A stretch of 64,000 bases of DNA, from sequence record OZ556245.1, one strand, 5' to 3'. A program made the position numbers and the translations under genes. This document shows positions 23,047-33,292 of the stretch, piece by piece. The number at the start of each line of letters is the position of its first letter. The stretch's first letter is position 1. The notes beneath the pieces are model-generated. The model did not search any database. It worked only from the letters and a program-made list of their open reading frames with translations, and was not told the DNA's origin. This DNA comes from a phage.

Positions 23047-23054
23047 TATAAATA
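23047..23054 (+). promoter_or_regulatory. late promoter (TATAAATA) for gene 34
   Basis: Exact TATAAATA ~35 nt upstream of gene 34 ATG. Confidence 0.7.
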
Positions 23055-23088: not shown

Positions 23089-26000
23089 ATGGCCGAGATT
23101 AAAAGAAAGTTCAGAGCAGAAGATGGTCTGGACGCAGGTGGCGATAAAATAATCAACGTAGCTTTAGCTGATCGTACCGTAGGAACTGACGGTGTTAACG
23201 TTGATTACTTAATTCAAGAAAACACAGTTCAACAATATGATCCAACTCGTGGATATTTAAAAGATTTTGTAATCATTTATAATAATCGTTTTTGGGCAGC
23301 AACGGATAATATTCCAAAACCTGCTGGAAGTTTTAATAGAATTCGTTGGAAAGCATTACGTACTGATGCTGTATATACAACCGTATCATCTGGACCGTAT
23401 CAATTAAAATCCGGAGAAGCAATTTCAGTAGATACATCAGTTGGTAATGACATTGAGTTTACTTTACCACCTTCTCCGCTCGATGGAGAAACAGTAATAA
23501 TTCAAGATATCGGTGGAAAACCTGGTATAAATCAGGTTAAAATAAGTTCTTCAAATCAGAACATTGTTAATTTTAGAGGTGAACAAGTACGTTCAGTTTT
23601 AATGACTCATCCAAAGTCACAGATGATATTCATTTTTAATAATCGTTTGTGGCAAATGTATGTTGCTGATTATAGCAGAGAAGCTGCAATTGTTACTCCA
23701 TCGACTGCATATCAAGCACAATCTAATGATTTTATCGTGCGTAGATTTACTTCCGCAGCGCCGATTAATATTAAACTTCCGAGATTTGCTAATCATGGCG
23801 ATATTATTAATTTCGTTGATTTAGATAAATTAAATCCACTTTATCATACAATTGTCACGACATATGATGAAACAACTTCAGTACAAGAAGTTGGAACTCA
23901 TTCCATTGAAGGCCGTACATCGATTGACGGTTTCTTGATGTTTGATGATAGTGAAAAATTATGGAGATTGTTTGACGGGGATAGTAAAGCACGTTTACGC
24001 ATTATAACGACTAATTCAAACATTCGTCCAAATGAAGAAGTTATGGTATTTGGTGCGAATAACGGAACAACTCAAACAATTGAGCTTCAGCTTCCAACTA
24101 ATATTTCTGTTGGTGATACTGTTAAAATTTCCATGAATTACATGAGAAAAGGACAAACAGTTAAAATCAAAGCTGCCGGTGAAGATAAAATTGCTTCTTC
24201 AGTTCAATTGCTGCAATTCCCAAAACGCTCAGAATATCCACCTGAAGCTGAATGGGTGACTGTTCAAGAATTAGTTTTTAACGGTGAAACTAATTATGTT
24301 CCAGTTTTACAGCTTGCTTATATTGAAGATTCTGACGGAAAATACTGGGTTGTACAGCAAAACGTTCCAACCGTTGAAAGAGTCGATTCTTTAAATAATT
24401 CTACTAGAGCAAGATTAGGCGTAATTGCTTTAGCTACACAAGCCCAAGCTAACGTCGATTTAGAAAATTCTCCACAAAAAGAATTAGCAATTACTCCAGA
24501 AACATTAGCTAACCGTACTGCTACAGAAACTCGTAGAGGTATCGCAAGAATAGCAACTACTGCTCAAGTAAATCAGAACACTACATTCTCTTTTGCTGAT
24601 GACCTTATCATCACTCCTAAAAAGCTGAATGAAAGAACTGCTACAGAAACTCGCAGAGGTGTTGCTGAAATTGCTACGCAGCAGGAAACTAATACAGGTA
24701 CTGATGATACTACAATCATCACTCCTAAAAAGCTTCAAGCTCGTCAAGGTTCTGAAACATTATCGGGTATTGTAACTTTTGTATCTACCGCAGGAGCTAC
24801 TCCAGCCTCTAGTCGTGAATTAAATGGTACAAATGTTTATAATAAAAATACTAATAATTTAGTTGTTTCGCCTAAAGCACTGGATCAGTATAAAGCTACT
24901 CCAACGCAACAAGGTGCAGTAATTTTAGCAGTTGAAAGTGAAGTAATTGCTGGACAAAGCCAAGAAGGATGGGCAAATGCGGTTGTAACACCAGAAACGT
25001 TACATAAAAAGACATCAACTGATGGAAGAATTGGTTTAATTGAAATTGCTACGCAAAGCGAAGTTAATACAGGAACTGATTATACTCGCGCAGTCACTCC
25101 TAAAACTTTAAATGACCGTAGAGCAACTGAAAGTTTAAGTGGTATAGCTGAAATTGCTACGCAAGTTGAATTCGACGCAGGCGTCGACGATACTCGTATC
25201 TCTACACCATTAAAAATTAAAACCAGATTTAATAGTACTGATCGTACTTCTGTTGTTGCTCTATCTGGATTAGTTGAATCAGGAACTCTCTGGGACCATT
25301 ATACCCTTAATATTCTTGAAGCAAATGAGACACAGCGTGGTACACTTCGTGTAGCTACACAAGTTGAAGCTGCTGCAGGAAAATTAGATAATGTTTTAAT
25401 AACTCCTAAAAAGCTTTTAGGTACTAAATCTACCGAATCGCAAGAAGGTGTTATTAAAGTTGCAACTCAGTCTGAAACCGTGACTGGAACGTCAGCAAAT
25501 ACTGCTGTATCTCCAAAAAATTTAAAATGGATTGTGCAGAGTGAACCTACTTGGGCAGCCACTCCAGCCATAAGAGGATTTGTTAAAACTTCATCCGGTT
25601 CAATTACATTCGTTGGTAATGATACAGCTGGTTCTACGCAGGACTTAGAGCTATACGAGAAAAATAGTTATGCAGTATCACCATATGAATTAAACCGTGT
25701 ATTAGCAAATTATTTGCCGTTAAAAGCAAAAGCTGCTGACGCAAATTTATTAGATGGTCTAGATTCATCTCAGTTCATTCGTAGGGATATTGCCCAGACA
25801 GTTAATGGTTCACTAACCTTAACCAAACAAACGAACCTGAGTGCCCCTCTTGTATCATCTAGTACTGCTACGTTTGGTGGATCAGTTTCAGCAAATAGTA
25901 CACTAACTATTTCTAATACTGGAACGGCAACTCAATTAATTTTTGAGAAAGGACCTCAAACTGGAACAAACCCGACTCAAACAATGACTGTAAAAGTGTG

Positions 26001-26966: not shown

Positions 26967-28082
26967 ATGGAAAAATTTATGGCAGAGTTTGGACAAGGAT
27001 ATGTCCAAACGCCATTTTTATCGGAAAGTAATTCAGTAAGATACAAAATAAGCATAGCGGGTTCTTGCCCGCTTTCTACAGCAGGACCATATGTTAAATT
27101 TCAGGATAACCCTGTCGGAAATCAAACATTTAGTGCAGGTCTTCATTTAAGAGTTTTTGACCCTTCAACAGGAGCATTAGTTGATAGTAAGTCATATGCT
27201 TTTTCTACTTCAAATAATACTACATCAGCTGCTTTTGTTAGTTTCATGAATTCTTTGTCAAACAATAGACTTGTTGCTATATTAACTAGCGGAAAGGTTA
27301 ATTTTCCTCCTGAAGTGGTATCTTGGTTAAGGGGAGCAGGAACTTCAGTTTTTCCATCAGATTCAGTATTGTCAAGATTTGACGTATCATATGCTGCTTT
27401 TTATACTTCTTCTAAAAGAGCTATTGCATTAGAGCATGTTAAACTAAGTAATAGAAAAAGCACAGATGATTATCAAACTATTTTAGATGTTGTATTTGAT
27501 AGTTTAGAAGACGTCGGAGCTACGGGATTTCCTAAAAGAACATATGAAAGTGTCGAGCAATTTATGTCAGCGGTTGGTGGAACTAATAACGAAATTGCGC
27601 GATTGCCAACTTCAGCTGCTATAAGTAAACTTTCTGACTATAATTTAATTCCTGGTGATGTTCTTTATCTTAAAGCACAGTTATATGCTGATGCTGATTT
27701 ACTTGATCTTGGAACTACAAACATATCCATTCGTTTTTATGATGCATCAAATGGTTATATTTCCTCTACCCAAGCTGAATTTACTGGGCAAGCTGGGTCT
27801 TGGGAATTAAAGGAAGATTATGTAGTTGTTCCTGAAAATGCAGTCGGATTTACTATATATGCGCAGAGAACTGCTCAAGCTGGTCAAGGCGGAATGAGGA
27901 ATTTAAGCTTTTCTGAAGTATCAAGAAATGGCGGCATTTCAAAACCTGCCGAATTTGGCGTCAACGGTATTCGCGTTAATTATGTCTGTGAATCGGCTTC
28001 ACCTCCAGATATAATGGTACTTCCTACACAAGCCTCTTCTAAAACTGGCAAAGTGTTTGGGCAAGAATTTAGAGAAGTTTAA
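26967..28082 (+). CDS. 35: gp35 long tail fibre hinge protein
   Basis: 371-aa ORF directly after gene 34. Confidence 0.88.
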   Translation: MEKFMAEFGQGYVQTPFLSESNSVRYKISIAGSCPLSTAGPYVKFQDNPVGNQTFSAGLHLRVFDPSTGALVDSKSYAFSTSNNTTSAAFVSFMNSLSNNRLVAILTSGKVNFPPEVVSWLRGAGTSVFPSDSVLSRFDVSYAAFYTSSKRAIALEHVKLSNRKSTDDYQTILDVVFDSLEDVGATGFPKRTYESVEQFMSAVGGTNNEIARLPTSAAISKLSDYNLIPGDVLYLKAQLYADADLLDLGTTNISIRFYDASNGYISSTQAEFTGQAGSWELKEDYVVVPENAVGFTIYAQRTAQAGQGGMRNLSFSEVSRNGGISKPAEFGVNGIRVNYVCESASPPDIMVLPTQASSKTGKVFGQEFREV

Positions 28083-28113: not shown

Positions 28114-28121
28114 TATAAATA
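28114..28121 (+). promoter_or_regulatory. late promoter (TATAAATA) for gene 36
   Basis: Exact TATAAATA immediately after the gene 35 terminator hairpin. Confidence 0.7.
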
Positions 28122-28144: not shown

Positions 28145-28795
28145 ATGGCTGATTTAAAAGTAGGTTCAACTGTGGGTGGATCTGTCATTTGGCATCAAGG
28201 AAATTTTCCATTGAATTCAGCCGGTGACGATGTACTCTACAAATCATTTAAAATATATTCAGAATATAATAAACCGCAGGCAGCTGATAACGATTTCGTT
28301 TCTAAAGCTAATGGTGGTACTTACACCGGTCCAATTACTATTAATTATGGGGTAAATAGTTATCTTCAATTAAGTAATAATGAAACCCCTATCCGAATTC
28401 GTTCTGGTGGCGGCACCGGTAATACTCTTGTAATCGGTGGCTCTTCTGGTGGTATTAGTTTTAGACCTGCAGGTAGTGAAATCACTACTGGACAAATTAC
28501 TATTACGCCAGAAGGTTTGACAACATTCACCAAAGCTGTAAAGGCTCCATCTGTAACTGTTACATCTACTCCTTCCGCAGCATCAGATGCTACTCGTAAA
28601 GATTATGTTGATGGAGCAATAAATACTGTTACAGCAAATGCAAACTCTAGAGTGTTACGATCTGGTGACACCATGACAGGAAATTTAACTGCGCCAAACC
28701 TTTTTTCACAGAATCCTGCATCTCAACCTTCACACGTTCCACGATTTGACCAAATCGTAATTAAGGATTCTGTTCAAGATTTCGGCTATTATTAA
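28145..28795 (+). CDS. 36: gp36 long tail fibre distal connector
   Basis: 216-aa ORF with its own TATAAATA late promoter. Confidence 0.88.
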
Positions 28796-28803
28796 GAGGA
28801 CTT

Positions 28804-31788
28804 ATGGCTACTTTAAAACAAATACAATTTAAAAGAAGCAAAACCGCAGGTCAACTTCCTGCTGCTTCAGTATTAGCCGAAGGTGAATTGGCTATTAATT
28901 TAAAAGATAAAACAATTTTCACAAAAGATGACTCAGGCAATGTTATAGAATTAGGTTTAAAATATGGAGGAACAATTGATGGTTCTTTAACTGTTAATGG
29001 AAATATAATTGGAAATTTAACAGGTAACGCTGCAACTGCAACGAAATTAAAAACAGCACGAAAAATTAATGGTATATCCTTTGATGGGTCAAAAGATATC
29101 ACGCTAACTCCATCCGACATAAATGTCAATAGCACAACGTTTATAAAAAATAACGGCGAATTACCTGTTGATGCTAATTTAGATACGTATGGGCCTGTTG
29201 AAGAATATCTTGGAGTTTGGTCGAAAGCAACTTCAACCAACGCTCAACCAGCAAATAAATTTCCAGAAGACAATGCTGTAGGTGTGCTAGAAGTATTTGT
29301 GGCCGGTCAATTTGCTGGTACTCAGAGATATACAACTAGATACGGAAATGTTTATATTCGTTCCTTGACTGCTACATGGAACGGAGTAAATGGTCCGTGG
29401 AGTGTGTGGCGAAATATTCAATCCGGTACTCGTCCACTGTCAACAACAATTGATCTTAATGATCTAGGAGGCGCTGAACACCTTGGTTTGTGGCGAAATA
29501 GTTCAAATTCCATTGCTACATTTGACAGAAATTTCCCAGAAGAGGGGTCGTCAGCTCAAGGTCTTTTGGAAGTATATGAAGGTGGAAACTATTCTCGTAC
29601 ACAAAGATATACAACCAGATTTGGTGTTGTTTATACTCGTTGTCTTGCTGCCGCGTGGGATTCTACTGCGCCTAAATGGGGACCGTGGCAGCAAGTCGGT
29701 AATGTCACACCAGCGACTTTTTATGATGGAGATCTGAATGATTTTAAAACTCCTGGGTTATATAATATTTTAGGCACTGATGCCGTTATTAATTGTCCTA
29801 CAGGCGAAGGTTTACCAGCCGTTATTGTTGGTTTGCTGGAAGTTAAACAGCGTGCTTCTGGTGGTGCTATTTTCCAAAAATTTACTACTGCCGGAACAGG
29901 TGCAACTACCCGCGATCGTATTTTTGAGCGCGCATATACCGGCGGTGTGTGGGGTGAATGGAACGAAGTATACACATCTTATTCTCTACCAATTACTTTG
30001 GGTATGGGCGGTATTAAATCTAACTTAGCAGAGTTAGACTGGCAAACATTTGATTTTGTTCCTGGTAGTATGTTTAGCGTTCCTTTGAACAAAATAAAGA
30101 ACATGCCAGCTAATATGGATTGGGGTACGATTGACAGAAACTTAATTATGTTTTCTGTTGGTCCTAGCGAGCACACCAGCACAGGACGTACTGTTCAGGT
30201 TTGGCGTGGTACTGTATCCCAGACAAACTACCGTTATTTTGTCGTTCGTGTATTCGGTAATTCAGGAAATAGAACTTGCACAGTTCGTCGCGTTGTTCTT
30301 GAAGATGGTCGCCACAAATGGACAGCGCAACAAGATTTTAATGGCGCAGTTAACTTCGGTGCTCCTACCAATTTTAACTCTACTGTTAACCTTAATAACA
30401 CTACCACTTTTAAAACAGAAGTTAAATTTCGCTCATTGAATGCATTCCGTATGTATGGCGGAAAATTTGGTACAATTTTCCGTAATGATGGAGAGAGTCT
30501 TTATATTCTTTCCACCGACGAAGATGACCAAGATGGAAACTTTAATACAAATAGACCTTTCCGTTATGAATTGAGAACTGGTGATGTTACTTTAGGTGGT
30601 ACTAGTGGTGCTAACGTTTTAAAATTAAAACGTGATTCTCTCACCGCATTTTTTGGCGGTGATATTAACACGAAAGGCTTGCTGACTTTTGACGCCGGAC
30701 GTTTAGGATCACGAGATTATTTTAAATTTAACCATTGGGGTGATAGTAATAATGCGCGTGATAACATTATTCAGTTAGAAGACAGCAAAGGCGCTCATTT
30801 TTCCACTGAACGTACTTTAGCGACTGGTGCAATTAAGACTAAATTTTTTGGTGAAATTGAATCCGATGGTAAATTGGTTATTAAACGTCCGGGTGATTCT
30901 ATTGTATTATCAACAACTGCTAGTAATTCTTTGCATATTCGTGGTGACATAGACGGGACTGGTAACTGGTATATTGGTAAGGGTGGTGCTGATAATGGAT
31001 TAGCGTTATATAGTTATGCTACTAATGCTGGTGTATACATTACAAACGCAGGAGATATCACGCTAAGTCCAAAAGGCGTCGAAATGGCCCATGTCAATAA
31101 CGTTCGATTATATGTTCATGGTGAACGTTGGACTGCTAGTCAACCAGGTGATTGGAGTAGTCAGTGGCAAGTGGAAGCGCCAATATTCGTCGATCATGGT
31201 TATGTTTCACAGGATTGTTATTATCCAATTATTAAAGGAAGAAGTGTAATCACCAATCAAGGGTTTGTAACTGCCGTCGATCTTGGTATTCGTCGTGTCA
31301 ATAACAATTGGGGACAAGCAATTATTCGTGTTGGATCTGCGGAGGCATCGCCAGCGGCTGGACACCCTAACGCGGTATTTGAATTTCATTACGACGGTAC
31401 TTTCTATTCTCCTGGTAATGGTAACTTTAACGATGTGTATATTCGTTCCGATGGTCGTCTTAAGATTAATAAAAAAGAGCTAGAAAACGGAGCGATTGAA
31501 AAAGTTTGCCGACTGAAAGTTTATACTTACGATAAAGTTAAGTCTATTAAAGACCGTAGTGTTATTAAACATGAAGTTGGTATTATTGCGCAGGATCTTG
31601 AAAAGGAATTGCCGGAAGCTGTATCTAAAGTTGAAGTTGATGGATCTGATGTTCTGACAATTTCTAACTCTGCTGTGAATGCTCTTTTAATTAAGGCCAT
31701 TCAGGAAATGAGCGAAGAAATTAAAGAATTGAAAACACCTTTCTTCACTAAAATTGCTCGCAAAATTAGTAATTATTTTAAATTCTAA
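28804..31788 (+). CDS. 37: gp37 long tail fibre distal subunit with C-terminal self-cleaving chaperone-like domain
   Basis: 994-aa ORF starting [13 protein letters not shown]; C-terminal ~110 aa carries SDGRLK motif. Confidence 0.9.
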
Positions 31789-31820
31789 CAACAGGGGGCT
31801 TTGCCCCTTTGGAGAAAATT

Positions 31821-32603
31821 ATGGCAGTAGTTGGTGTTCCCGGTTGGATTGGTAGTTCATCCGTAAATGAAACAGGACAACGATGGATGAGTCAAGCGGC
31901 TGGTCAATTAAGATTGGGCATTCCTTGCTGGATGAGCCAATTTGCAGGTCGCTCAAGAGAAATTATTCACACGCTTGGAGCAGACCATAACTTCAATGGT
32001 CAATGGTTCCGAGATAGATGTTTTGAGGCAGGTAGTGCACCTATAGTGTTTAATATCACTGGAGATTTAGTATCATATTCTAAAGATGTTCCTTTATTCT
32101 TTATGTACGGAGATACACCGAATGAATATGTTCAGTTGAACATACATGGTGTAACGATGTATGGCCGTGGCGGGAATGGCGGTAGCAATAGTCCTGGCTC
32201 AGCTGGGGGTCATTGTATTCAAAATGATATTGGTGGGAGACTAAGAATTAATAATGGCGGAGCTATTGCTGGCGGCGGTGGCGGCGGTGGCGGCGGGTAT
32301 TATTCTCCTTTTTCACAAATGAGATTGACCTTTGGCGGTGGCGGCGGTCGTCCGTTTGGCGCACCGGGCGGATCTATTAATATGCAATCAGGAGCAACTG
32401 CTGGTACTATTTCTGCGCCAGGCGCAGGGTCTGTGAACGGTATCTACAACGGCGGGTCTGGTGGTGAAGTTGGCTCCGCAGGAGGTAGATGTAATATTCG
32501 TGGTCAAGGATATGAATACGATGGCGGAGCTGCTGGTTATGCCGTCATAGGGTCTACACCGACATGGCAAAACGTTGGAGCAATATATGGTCCAAGAGTA
32601 TAA
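31821..32603 (+). CDS. 38: gp38 tail fibre tip adhesin (T2-type, glycine-rich)
   Basis: ~260 aa from ATG at 31821 (GGAG 7 nt upstream); [14 protein letters not shown]-terminus; several poly-Gly motifs separating short variable segments. Confidence 0.85.
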
Positions 32604-32635: not shown

Positions 32636-33292
32636 ATGACAGCACCTAGAATATCATTTTCGCCCTCTGATATTCTGTTTGGTGTTCTAGATCGCTTGTT
32701 CAAAGATAATGCTACCGGGGAAGTTCTTGCTTCCAGGGTAGCTGTCGTAATTCTTTTGTTTATAATGGCGATTGTTTGGTATAGGGGAGATAGTTTCTTT
32801 GAGTACTATAAGCAATCAAAGTATGAAACATACAGTGAAATTATTGAAAAGGAAAGAAATGCACGCTTTGAATCTGTCGCCCTGGAACAACTCCAGATAG
32901 TTCATATATCATCTGAGGCAGACTTTAGTGCGGTGTATTCTTTCCGCCCTAAAAACTTAAACTATTTTGTTGATATTATAGCATACGAAGGAAAACTACC
33001 TTCAACAATAAGTGAAAAATCACTTGGAGGATATCCTGTTGATAAAACTATGGATGAATATGCAGTTCATTTAAATGGACGTCATTATTATTCAAACTCA
33101 AAATTTGCTTTTTTACCAACTAAAAAGCCTACTCCCGAAATAAATTACATGTACAGTTGTCCATATTTTAATTTGGATAATATCTATGCTGGAACAATAA
33201 CCATGTACTGGTATAGAAATGATCATATAAGTAATGACCGCCTTGAATCAATATGTGCTCAGGCGGCCAGAATATTAGGAAGGGCTAAATAA
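32636..33292 (+). CDS. t: holin T
   Basis: 218-aa ORF, single TM helix (VAVVILLFIMAIVWY) and large periplasmic domain; strong AAGGAGGG Shine-Dalgarno. Confidence 0.93.
   Translation: MTAPRISFSPSDILFGVLDRLFKDNATGEVLASRVAVVILLFIMAIVWYRGDSFFEYYKQSKYETYSEIIEKERNARFESVALEQLQIVHISSEADFSAVYSFRPKNLNYFVDIIAYEGKLPSTISEKSLGGYPVDKTMDEYAVHLNGRHYYSNSKFAFLPTKKPTPEINYMYSCPYFNLDNIYAGTITMYWYRNDHISNDRLESICAQAARILGRAK

Follow-up and report, generated by a model that had tools for sequence, protein, structure and literature searches.

Gene 38 encodes an adhesin of the gp38 family

In a 64,000-nucleotide (nt) stretch of phage DNA (sequence record OZ556245.1; the whole stretch is called the window below), we analyzed gene 38 (g38) and found that its product, gp38, is a real, intact, and ordinary adhesin of a T6-like Tequatrovirus, of a kind that has been well studied. 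Very probably, gp38 is the monomer that caps each long tail fiber, and its T6-type set of variable loops directs the phage to the nucleoside channel Tsx. Published work already covers the gp38 family and its structure, the modular variability, the prediction of receptors from phylogeny, engineered swaps, and the receptor of this allele group. The gene is located as follows:

31821..32603, stop included (+): gene 38, T2/T6-type long-tail-fiber adhesin, receptor-recognizing protein (translation, Pfam, solved structures, megablast)

Translation of this open reading frame (ORF) gave 260 sense codons and a stop, uninterrupted. The first-pass annotation of the window had read a product of about 260 amino acids (aa) here, and all ten peptide strings that it quoted (10/10) occur exactly, at the positions it implied (aa 1-13, 115-130, 131-143, 144-159, 160-170, 171-185, 186-209, 210-222, 223-234, and, as DGGAAGY, 234-240). 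gp38 matched the Pfam family GP38 (PF05268) over the entire profile (1-218/218; E-value 4.6e-71, 239.6 bits against a cut-off of 25), and its aa 1-42 matched Gp38_N (PF21721), also from end to end (1-40/40; 3.9e-20, 72 bits against a cut-off of 25). At the sequence level, gp38 matched both of the only two solved gp38 adhesins, namely, the receptor-binding domain of PP01 (9V85; 4e-80) and S16 gp38 (6F45_D; 2e-49), the latter solved in complex with the gp37 tip. An AlphaFold2 model of gp38, built on 63 family members, had a mean predicted local distance difference test (pLDDT) score of 87.6, with strands across aa 47-114 at pLDDT >90. When this model was compared with the whole PDB by Foldseek, only the same two entries were returned, i.e., 9V85 (template-modeling [TM] score 0.88, root-mean-square deviation 2.3 Å) and 6F45_D (TM score 0.76), in line with PMC6851490, which states that there are no further structural relatives of the polyglycine sandwich. 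Both solved adhesins consist of the same three domains, that is, an attachment domain, a beta-helix, and a polyglycine-II sandwich with five distal loops, and the model predicts such a sandwich on a beta-helix for the window's gp38 as well. The poly-Gly motifs described in the first-pass annotation are evident from composition: glycine makes up 46/126 residues (37%) in aa 115-240, where one run of nine glycines and one of five occur, versus 6/68 (9%) in aa 47-114, a strong enrichment far beyond chance.

T4 also has a gene 38 at the same map position after g37, where it encodes an assembly factor for gp37, and several database homologues of the window's gp38 still bear the name "distal long tail fiber assembly catalyst." We therefore weighed the reading that gp38 acts only as a T4-style chaperone of gp37, outside the virion, with receptor specificity lying in the gp37 tip. 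This is extremely improbable on several counts. Only adhesin families matched gp38 in Pfam at E <= 0.01; T4 gp38 is described as unrelated in sequence to the adhesin gp38 and as absent from the virion (PMC3157838, PMC6851490); the S16 crystal structure 6F45 has gp38 bound on the gp37 tip; T6 phages with amber mutations in g38 have normal morphology and fail to adsorb (PMC3157838); and the C-terminus of the window's gp37 is a removable S74 chaperone domain instead of a receptor-binding needle of the T4 type. gp38 is present in the virion of S16 (6F45) and, per Riede et al. 1987 as cited in PMC6851490, in those of T2-type phages; by analogy, the window's gp38 would be a virion protein as well. 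The first-pass annotation had called gp38 a T2-type adhesin that differs from the T4 protein, and both statements are borne out by Pfam, the two solved structures, synteny with T6 and T2, and the literature on near-identical alleles (PMC3157838, PMC12032242, PMC6851490, bioRxiv 10.64898/2026.04.02.716166).

Variability is confined to five loops on a conserved scaffold

Per-column entropy was calculated over 118 rows, comprising the window's gp38 and 117 cluster representatives of 225-285 aa (from 120 listed), and invariant columns were taken from a separate alignment of 63 sequences. Entropy was low except in five loops, at aa 121-128, 159-170, 184-190, 203-210, and 223-234. Invariant glycines stand between the loops at positions 115-120, 129-130, 153-156, 173-176, 180, 183, 201, and 218. 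The resulting map, in which HVS stands for hypervariable segment, is as follows:

31821..31958 (+): N-terminal attachment domain, aa 1-46, with W9, W22, and W37 and an internal WMSQxAG repeat; predicted to dock the monomer on the trimeric gp37 tip (Gp38_N; role of the Trp residues from the S16 structure, PMC6851490)
31959..32162 (+): beta-helix domain, first part, aa 47-114, conserved (low entropy; model strands; domain names from 9V85 and 6F45, PMC12892980)
32181..32204 (+): variable loop A, or HVS1, aa 121-128, GSNSPGSA (entropy peak; aligns with PP01 loop A, W119-I124)
32211..32270 (+): conserved beta-helix rungs, aa 131-150 (I133, N135, I137, G138, R140, L141, I143, N145, G147, and I149 invariant)
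32271..32297 (+): nine-glycine run, central polyglycine-II helix motif, aa 151-159 (G153-G156 invariant)
32298..32330 (+): variable loop B, or HVS2, aa 160-170, T6/Tsx-type allele (highest entropy in the family)
32370..32390 (+): variable loop C, aa 184-190, GSINMQS (entropy; aligns with PP01 loop C, N184-W189)
32427..32450 (+): variable loop D, aa 203-210, GSVNGIYN (entropy; aligns with PP01 loop D, N204-Y209)
32487..32522 (+): variable loop E, or HVS4, aa 223-234 (entropy; allele comparison; PP01 loop E, N225-S231)
32523..32600 (+): last glycine motif, GGAAG, and conserved C-terminal beta-helix strands, aa 235-260 (entropy, invariant columns, AlphaFold2 model)

Once small numbering offsets are followed through the alignments, the five loops coincide with PP01 loops A-E (loop B of PP01 being Q161-V170), and they also fit the map of Trojet et al., which has four HVS and five glycine-rich motifs (PMC3157838). 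The nine-glycine run is equivalent to the S16 segment 151-GGGGGGGG-158 (PMC6851490). Within the attachment domain, W9 is found in 113/118 rows, W22 in 112/118, and W37 in 98/118 (with Tyr in another 15), the window included. In S16, the three gp38 Trp residues occupy three equivalent pockets on the gp37 trimer (PMC6851490). W22 and W37 both lie within the internal repeat WMSQ(A/F)AG, which at the DNA level is a 30-nt repeat (31884-31913 and 31929-31958).

The alternation of glycine motifs and variable segments that the first-pass annotation described is real, but its segment map was wrong in three places. First, aa 131-143, listed there as a variable receptor-contact segment, are among the most conserved residues of the family, with I133, N135, I137, G138, R140, L141, and I143 invariant in the 63 sequences; the model places beta-strands at 133-135, 141-145, and 148-150, and in this model aa 131-143 form the return to the beta-helix between two glycine-rich excursions. 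Second, the stretch given as the first poly-Gly motif (aa 115-130) contains the first variable loop (aa 121-128). Third, aa 186-209, given as one segment, hold two variable loops (184-190 and 203-210) with a semi-conserved core between them. Engineering or segment swaps should follow the corrected map, in which there are five loops and aa 131-150 belong to the scaffold.

The loop set suggests that Tsx is the primary receptor

We compared gp38 with the adhesins of phages of known receptor at the 47 loop positions only. Identity to the window's loops was as follows:

T6, KarlGJung, and FL44 (Tsx): 44/47 each (94%)
JK38 (Tsx): 37/47 (79%)
EV240 (OmpA): 25/47 (53%, the highest outside Tsx)
FL18 (OmpA): 24/47
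M1 (OmpA): 18/47
T2 (FadL): 11/47
FL08 and AV119 (OmpA): 10/47
PP01 (OmpC): 8/47
S16 (OmpC): 6/47

More specifically, HVS2 is identical in KarlGJung and FL44, and differs by 1 aa in T6 and in JK38. In JK38, a T2-like beta-helix (27/71 residues identical to the window) is combined with T6-like loops, and the receptor is Tsx; thus, it is the loops rather than the backbone that track the receptor. The receptors themselves were established experimentally, by knockout plating for the FL phages (PMC12032242) and for RB5 and the T6-like RB phages, which are Tsx-dependent (PMC3157838). Likewise, random-barcode transposon-site sequencing assigned Tsx to T6, KarlGJung, Paracelsus, JK23, JK38, RB14, and CM8, and OmpA to EV240 (bioRxiv 10.64898/2026.04.02.716166, Table S1). 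In close relatives, the receptor changes when gp38 is exchanged, whether whole or just starting at HVS2 (bioRxiv 10.64898/2026.04.02.716166; RB5 x RB32, PMC3157838). Recognition of Yersinia and OmpA by phage PST has been traced to Q167R, M168I, and G208I in T6 numbering (PMC3157838), and the window's gp38 carries none of these changes, having Q166, M167, and G207 at the equivalent positions (G207 corresponds to T6 G208, the site of G208I). Among the receptor-predictive k-mers in the available part of the supplement to the 2026 receptor-prediction preprint, peptides of the gp38 loops were not found.

From these comparisons, the primary receptor of the window's gp38 is very likely Tsx. If the prediction holds, sequence alone gives the receptor, and hence also the resistance mutations (loss of tsx) and the phages that would complement this one in a cocktail.

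Several points weigh against this assignment, or against parts of it. The Tsx call for the window's allele comes from the alleles of its relatives, by comparison. Tyr231 in loop E (codon 32511-32513) is Ser in T6, RB5, KarlGJung, FL44, and JK38, i.e., in all of the Tsx-tested relatives compared, and it aligns with PP01 Tyr230, a loop E residue that photo-crosslinks to loop 7 of OmpC (PMC12892980). A single loop substitution can switch the receptor, as Q206L does in RB68 (OmpF to OmpW; bioRxiv 10.64898/2026.04.02.716166). Receptor data for the phages with Tyr231 (L14, UGKSEcP1/2, and cluster P0001, as well as Killian, YUEEL01, SsoM_113, LF73, and ZCEC15) were not found in the available part of the 2026 preprint supplement. 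As to the fold, the AlphaFold2 model is weak at aa 1-14 (pLDDT <50), as is expected for a domain that folds against gp37.

Taken together with Ser213, Ala202, and Asn187, Tyr231 could mark an allele of the same adhesin with shifted or widened specificity, which would recognize particular Tsx variants, or another beta-barrel, for example OmpA, besides or instead of Tsx. Besides the crosslinked equivalent in PP01, this idea draws on the one-residue loop changes that switch the receptor in RB68 and RB51, on the three residues that confer Yersinia/OmpA activity on PST, and on the near-identical gp38 with a duplicated HVS2 in Yersinia phage ZN18. Moreover, Tyr/Phe231 alleles form a recurrent subgroup: Tyr231 is also found in L14, in UGKSEcP1/2, and in the cluster represented by P0001, which stands for 155 sequences. 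We nevertheless consider a shifted specificity improbable, since 44/47 loop residues and all of HVS2 match Tsx-dependent phages, all T6-like adhesins tested by Trojet et al. recognize Tsx, and JK38 uses Tsx with only 79% loop identity. That this widespread Tyr231 sub-allele recognizes other Tsx variants or an additional outer-membrane protein is similarly doubtful; if it did, gp38 with Tyr231 would, like RB68 Q206L, be a naturally occurring switch of specificity by one residue.

The first-pass annotation also regarded gp38 as the likely determinant of host range. This holds for the primary outer-membrane receptor but not for host range as a whole, which the gp12 short fibers and intracellular defenses also shape. 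It is possible, at somewhat less than an even chance, that gp38 fixes the primary receptor while practical host range is set mainly by gp12 and the lipopolysaccharide (LPS) core, by shielding through O-antigen or capsule, and by host defenses. Straboviridae also depend on a second receptor, an LPS sugar (Kdo or HepI) determined by gp12, and exchanging gp12 alters the phenotype irrespective of gp38 (bioRxiv 10.64898/2026.04.02.716166); in addition, PMC12032242 reports that phages with identical Gp38 differ in their ECOR infection patterns. On the other hand, swapping gp38 alone is enough to change which receptor is used and to allow growth on hosts that otherwise resist the phage. Such a division of roles is compatible with a Tsx-directed gp38 adhesin, and it limits the claim that gp38 determines host range.

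A working model for fiber assembly and adsorption

By analogy with its relatives, gp38 would act as follows. gp37 would trimerize with the aid of its C-terminal S74 domain, which would then be cut off, presumably exposing the docking site for gp38. One gp38 monomer would plug its three-helix N-terminal domain (W9, W22, W37) into the base of the mature gp37 trimer. The beta-helix scaffold (aa 47-114, 131-150, and 241-260) is predicted to carry two glycine-rich excursions that fold into the polyglycine-II sandwich, whose distal face would display the five variable loops for binding to the extracellular loops of an outer-membrane beta-barrel (predicted to be Tsx). In T4, the engagement of several fibers sets off the baseplate, with binding of gp12 to the LPS core and contraction of the tail. 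Likewise, reversible binding by several fibers of the window's phage may release the gp12 short fibers for irreversible LPS binding, followed by tail contraction.

Relatives and alleles of the window's gp38

The closest known adhesins are the T6-type Tsx adhesins (T6, RB3/5/6/7/9/10, RB14, RB27, KarlGJung [Bas37], Paracelsus [Bas36], FL44, JK23, L14, and UGKSEcP1/2), which have the same HVS set and the same g37-g38-t context as the window and lie within 1 aa of its gp38 in length. By megablast, g38 is carried by 398 phage records, the best at 99.1% nucleotide identity; L14 and UGKSEcP1/2 are at 99.1%, the RB3 group at 95.2%, and KarlGJung and Paracelsus at ~92%. At the protein level, L14 differs by 1 aa (N187D), UGKSEcP2 by 2, RB5 by 5, and KarlGJung by 9; the representative of cluster P0001 differs by 4. 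Asn187 is common to the window and T6, but not to the window's nearest relatives. The exact 260-aa gp38 was absent from a collection of 15 billion proteins, which, with deposited proteins 1-4 aa away, makes it one more allele and not a novelty. A tblastn search with the C-terminal 146 aa, in which only query aa 17-146 aligned and the first glycine motif remained unmatched, returned 125 records with at least 90% identity, including T6, RB6, RB10, RB14, RB27, JK23, and FL44; JK38 and EV240 belong to a separate group at 60-80%.

T2 gp38 (FadL/OmpF-type) belongs to the same family and shares the gene position and the glycine motifs, but its beta-helix and its gp37 (1341 aa versus 994) are of a different subtype. 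Because identity to T2 gp38 is just 51% over the specificity domain and 11/47 at the loop positions, "T6-type" is a more exact label for the window's allele than "T2-type." PP01 and S16 gp38 share the domain plan described above, but their loops (8/47 and 6/47) are unrelated to those of the window and bind OmpC, not Tsx.

Two exact direct repeats flank the HVS2 coding sequence:

32274-32288 and 32334-32348 (+): 15-nt direct repeats GGCGGTGGCGGCGGT in glycine-motif DNA, bracketing HVS2

In gp38 of Yersinia phage vB_YepM_ZN18, which otherwise differs from the window's gp38 by 2 aa, a 17-aa (51-nt) tandem duplication has doubled HVS2. This duplication is exactly as long as the period that separates copies of the repeat at 32283 and 32334, which is what unequal exchange between the repeats would produce. 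A doubled HVS2 is thus carried by a phage propagated on Yersinia.

Three further observations concern database entries. Two T6 records differ in loop D of gp38, with GSVIGIY in AP018814 and GSVNGIY in the other T6 sequence (P0004) and in the window, which suggests that laboratory stocks of T6 differ in their adhesin alleles. The closest cluster representative, P0001, is named "receptor-recognizing protein [Bacillus cereus]" in NCBI, a label that almost certainly reflects contamination or a mislabeled coliphage gene. Finally, P0034 (303 aa) joins Peptidase_S74 and GP38 domains and looks like a fused call of the gp37 C-terminus and gp38.

Genomic context, partner fiber protein, and transcription

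The genes are ordered g34-g35-g36-g37-g38-t, as in T6 and T2, which is the canonical T-even block for long tail fibers; g38 lies immediately downstream of g37 and upstream of t, the position typical of gp38 adhesins. The 12 kb around g38 is 93-97% identical to many Tequatrovirus genomes, in the gene order of T6. The product of g34 has 1289 aa. Neighboring features are as follows:

23047..23054 (+): T4-type late promoter motif TATAAATA upstream of g34 (ATG at 23089), by position
26967-28082 (+): gp35, hinge protein, 371 aa (Pfam scan)
28114..28121 (+): T4-type late promoter motif TATAAATA, 24 nt before the g36 ATG at 28145, by position
28804..31788 (+): gene 37, distal long-tail-fiber subunit, 994 aa, of the fiber capped by gp38 (91% identical to T6 gp37)
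31447..31788 (+): C-terminal intramolecular-chaperone (Peptidase_S74) domain of gp37, from the SDGRLK motif (aa 882) (PF13884 at aa 882-940, 9.6e-11)
31811..31814 (+): Shine-Dalgarno GGAG, 6-nt spacer to the gp38 ATG (read from the sequence)
32636-33292: holin t (Phage_holin_T, 8e-117)

From SDGRLK onwards, the C-terminal region of the window's gp37 aligns with the C-terminus of T2 gp37, and the S16 gp37 chain 6F45_A matches aa 875-979; cleavage at this motif would follow the precedent of these relatives. Divergence from T6 gp37 is concentrated in aa 201-300 and 801-900 (73% and 75% identity, versus 90-97% elsewhere), the second block lying just before the cleavage motif, where gp38 is predicted to dock.

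The ATG at 31821 is the annotated gp38 start in KarlGJung, RB5, L14, and UGKSEcP2. A TTG start at 31809, given in a mechanically derived ORF list, was dropped, since it overlaps the GGAG ribosome-binding site and these four close relatives are annotated from the ATG; in the T6 record AP018814, the annotated gp38 start is at the corresponding upstream (TTG-side) position.

The late promoter motif TATAAATA occurs six times in the window, a count that is not above chance, and only the copies directly before g34 and g36 are probably meaningful, by position alone. The copy before g36 is likely the start of a g36-g37-g38 transcript. A motif scan of the window found no copy before g38, and g38 is therefore probably read from the g36 promoter. 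In the spacer between g37 and g38 (31794-31808, +), immediately upstream of the ribosome-binding site of gp38, lies a GC-rich hairpin (GGGGGC-TTT-GCCCC, then TTT); as a candidate regulator it was dropped, because its folding energy was not significant relative to shuffled sequences (z = -1.19). An antisense ORF of 60 aa (32388-32570) overlaps g38 and is most likely a by-product of the G-rich coding strand. In gp35, aa 58-112 matched the Pfam family ILEI (interleukin-like EMT inducer/FAM3 fold, PF15711; E-value 5.4e-08, 33.7 bits against a cut-off of 27), an unexpected label for a tail-fiber hinge protein.

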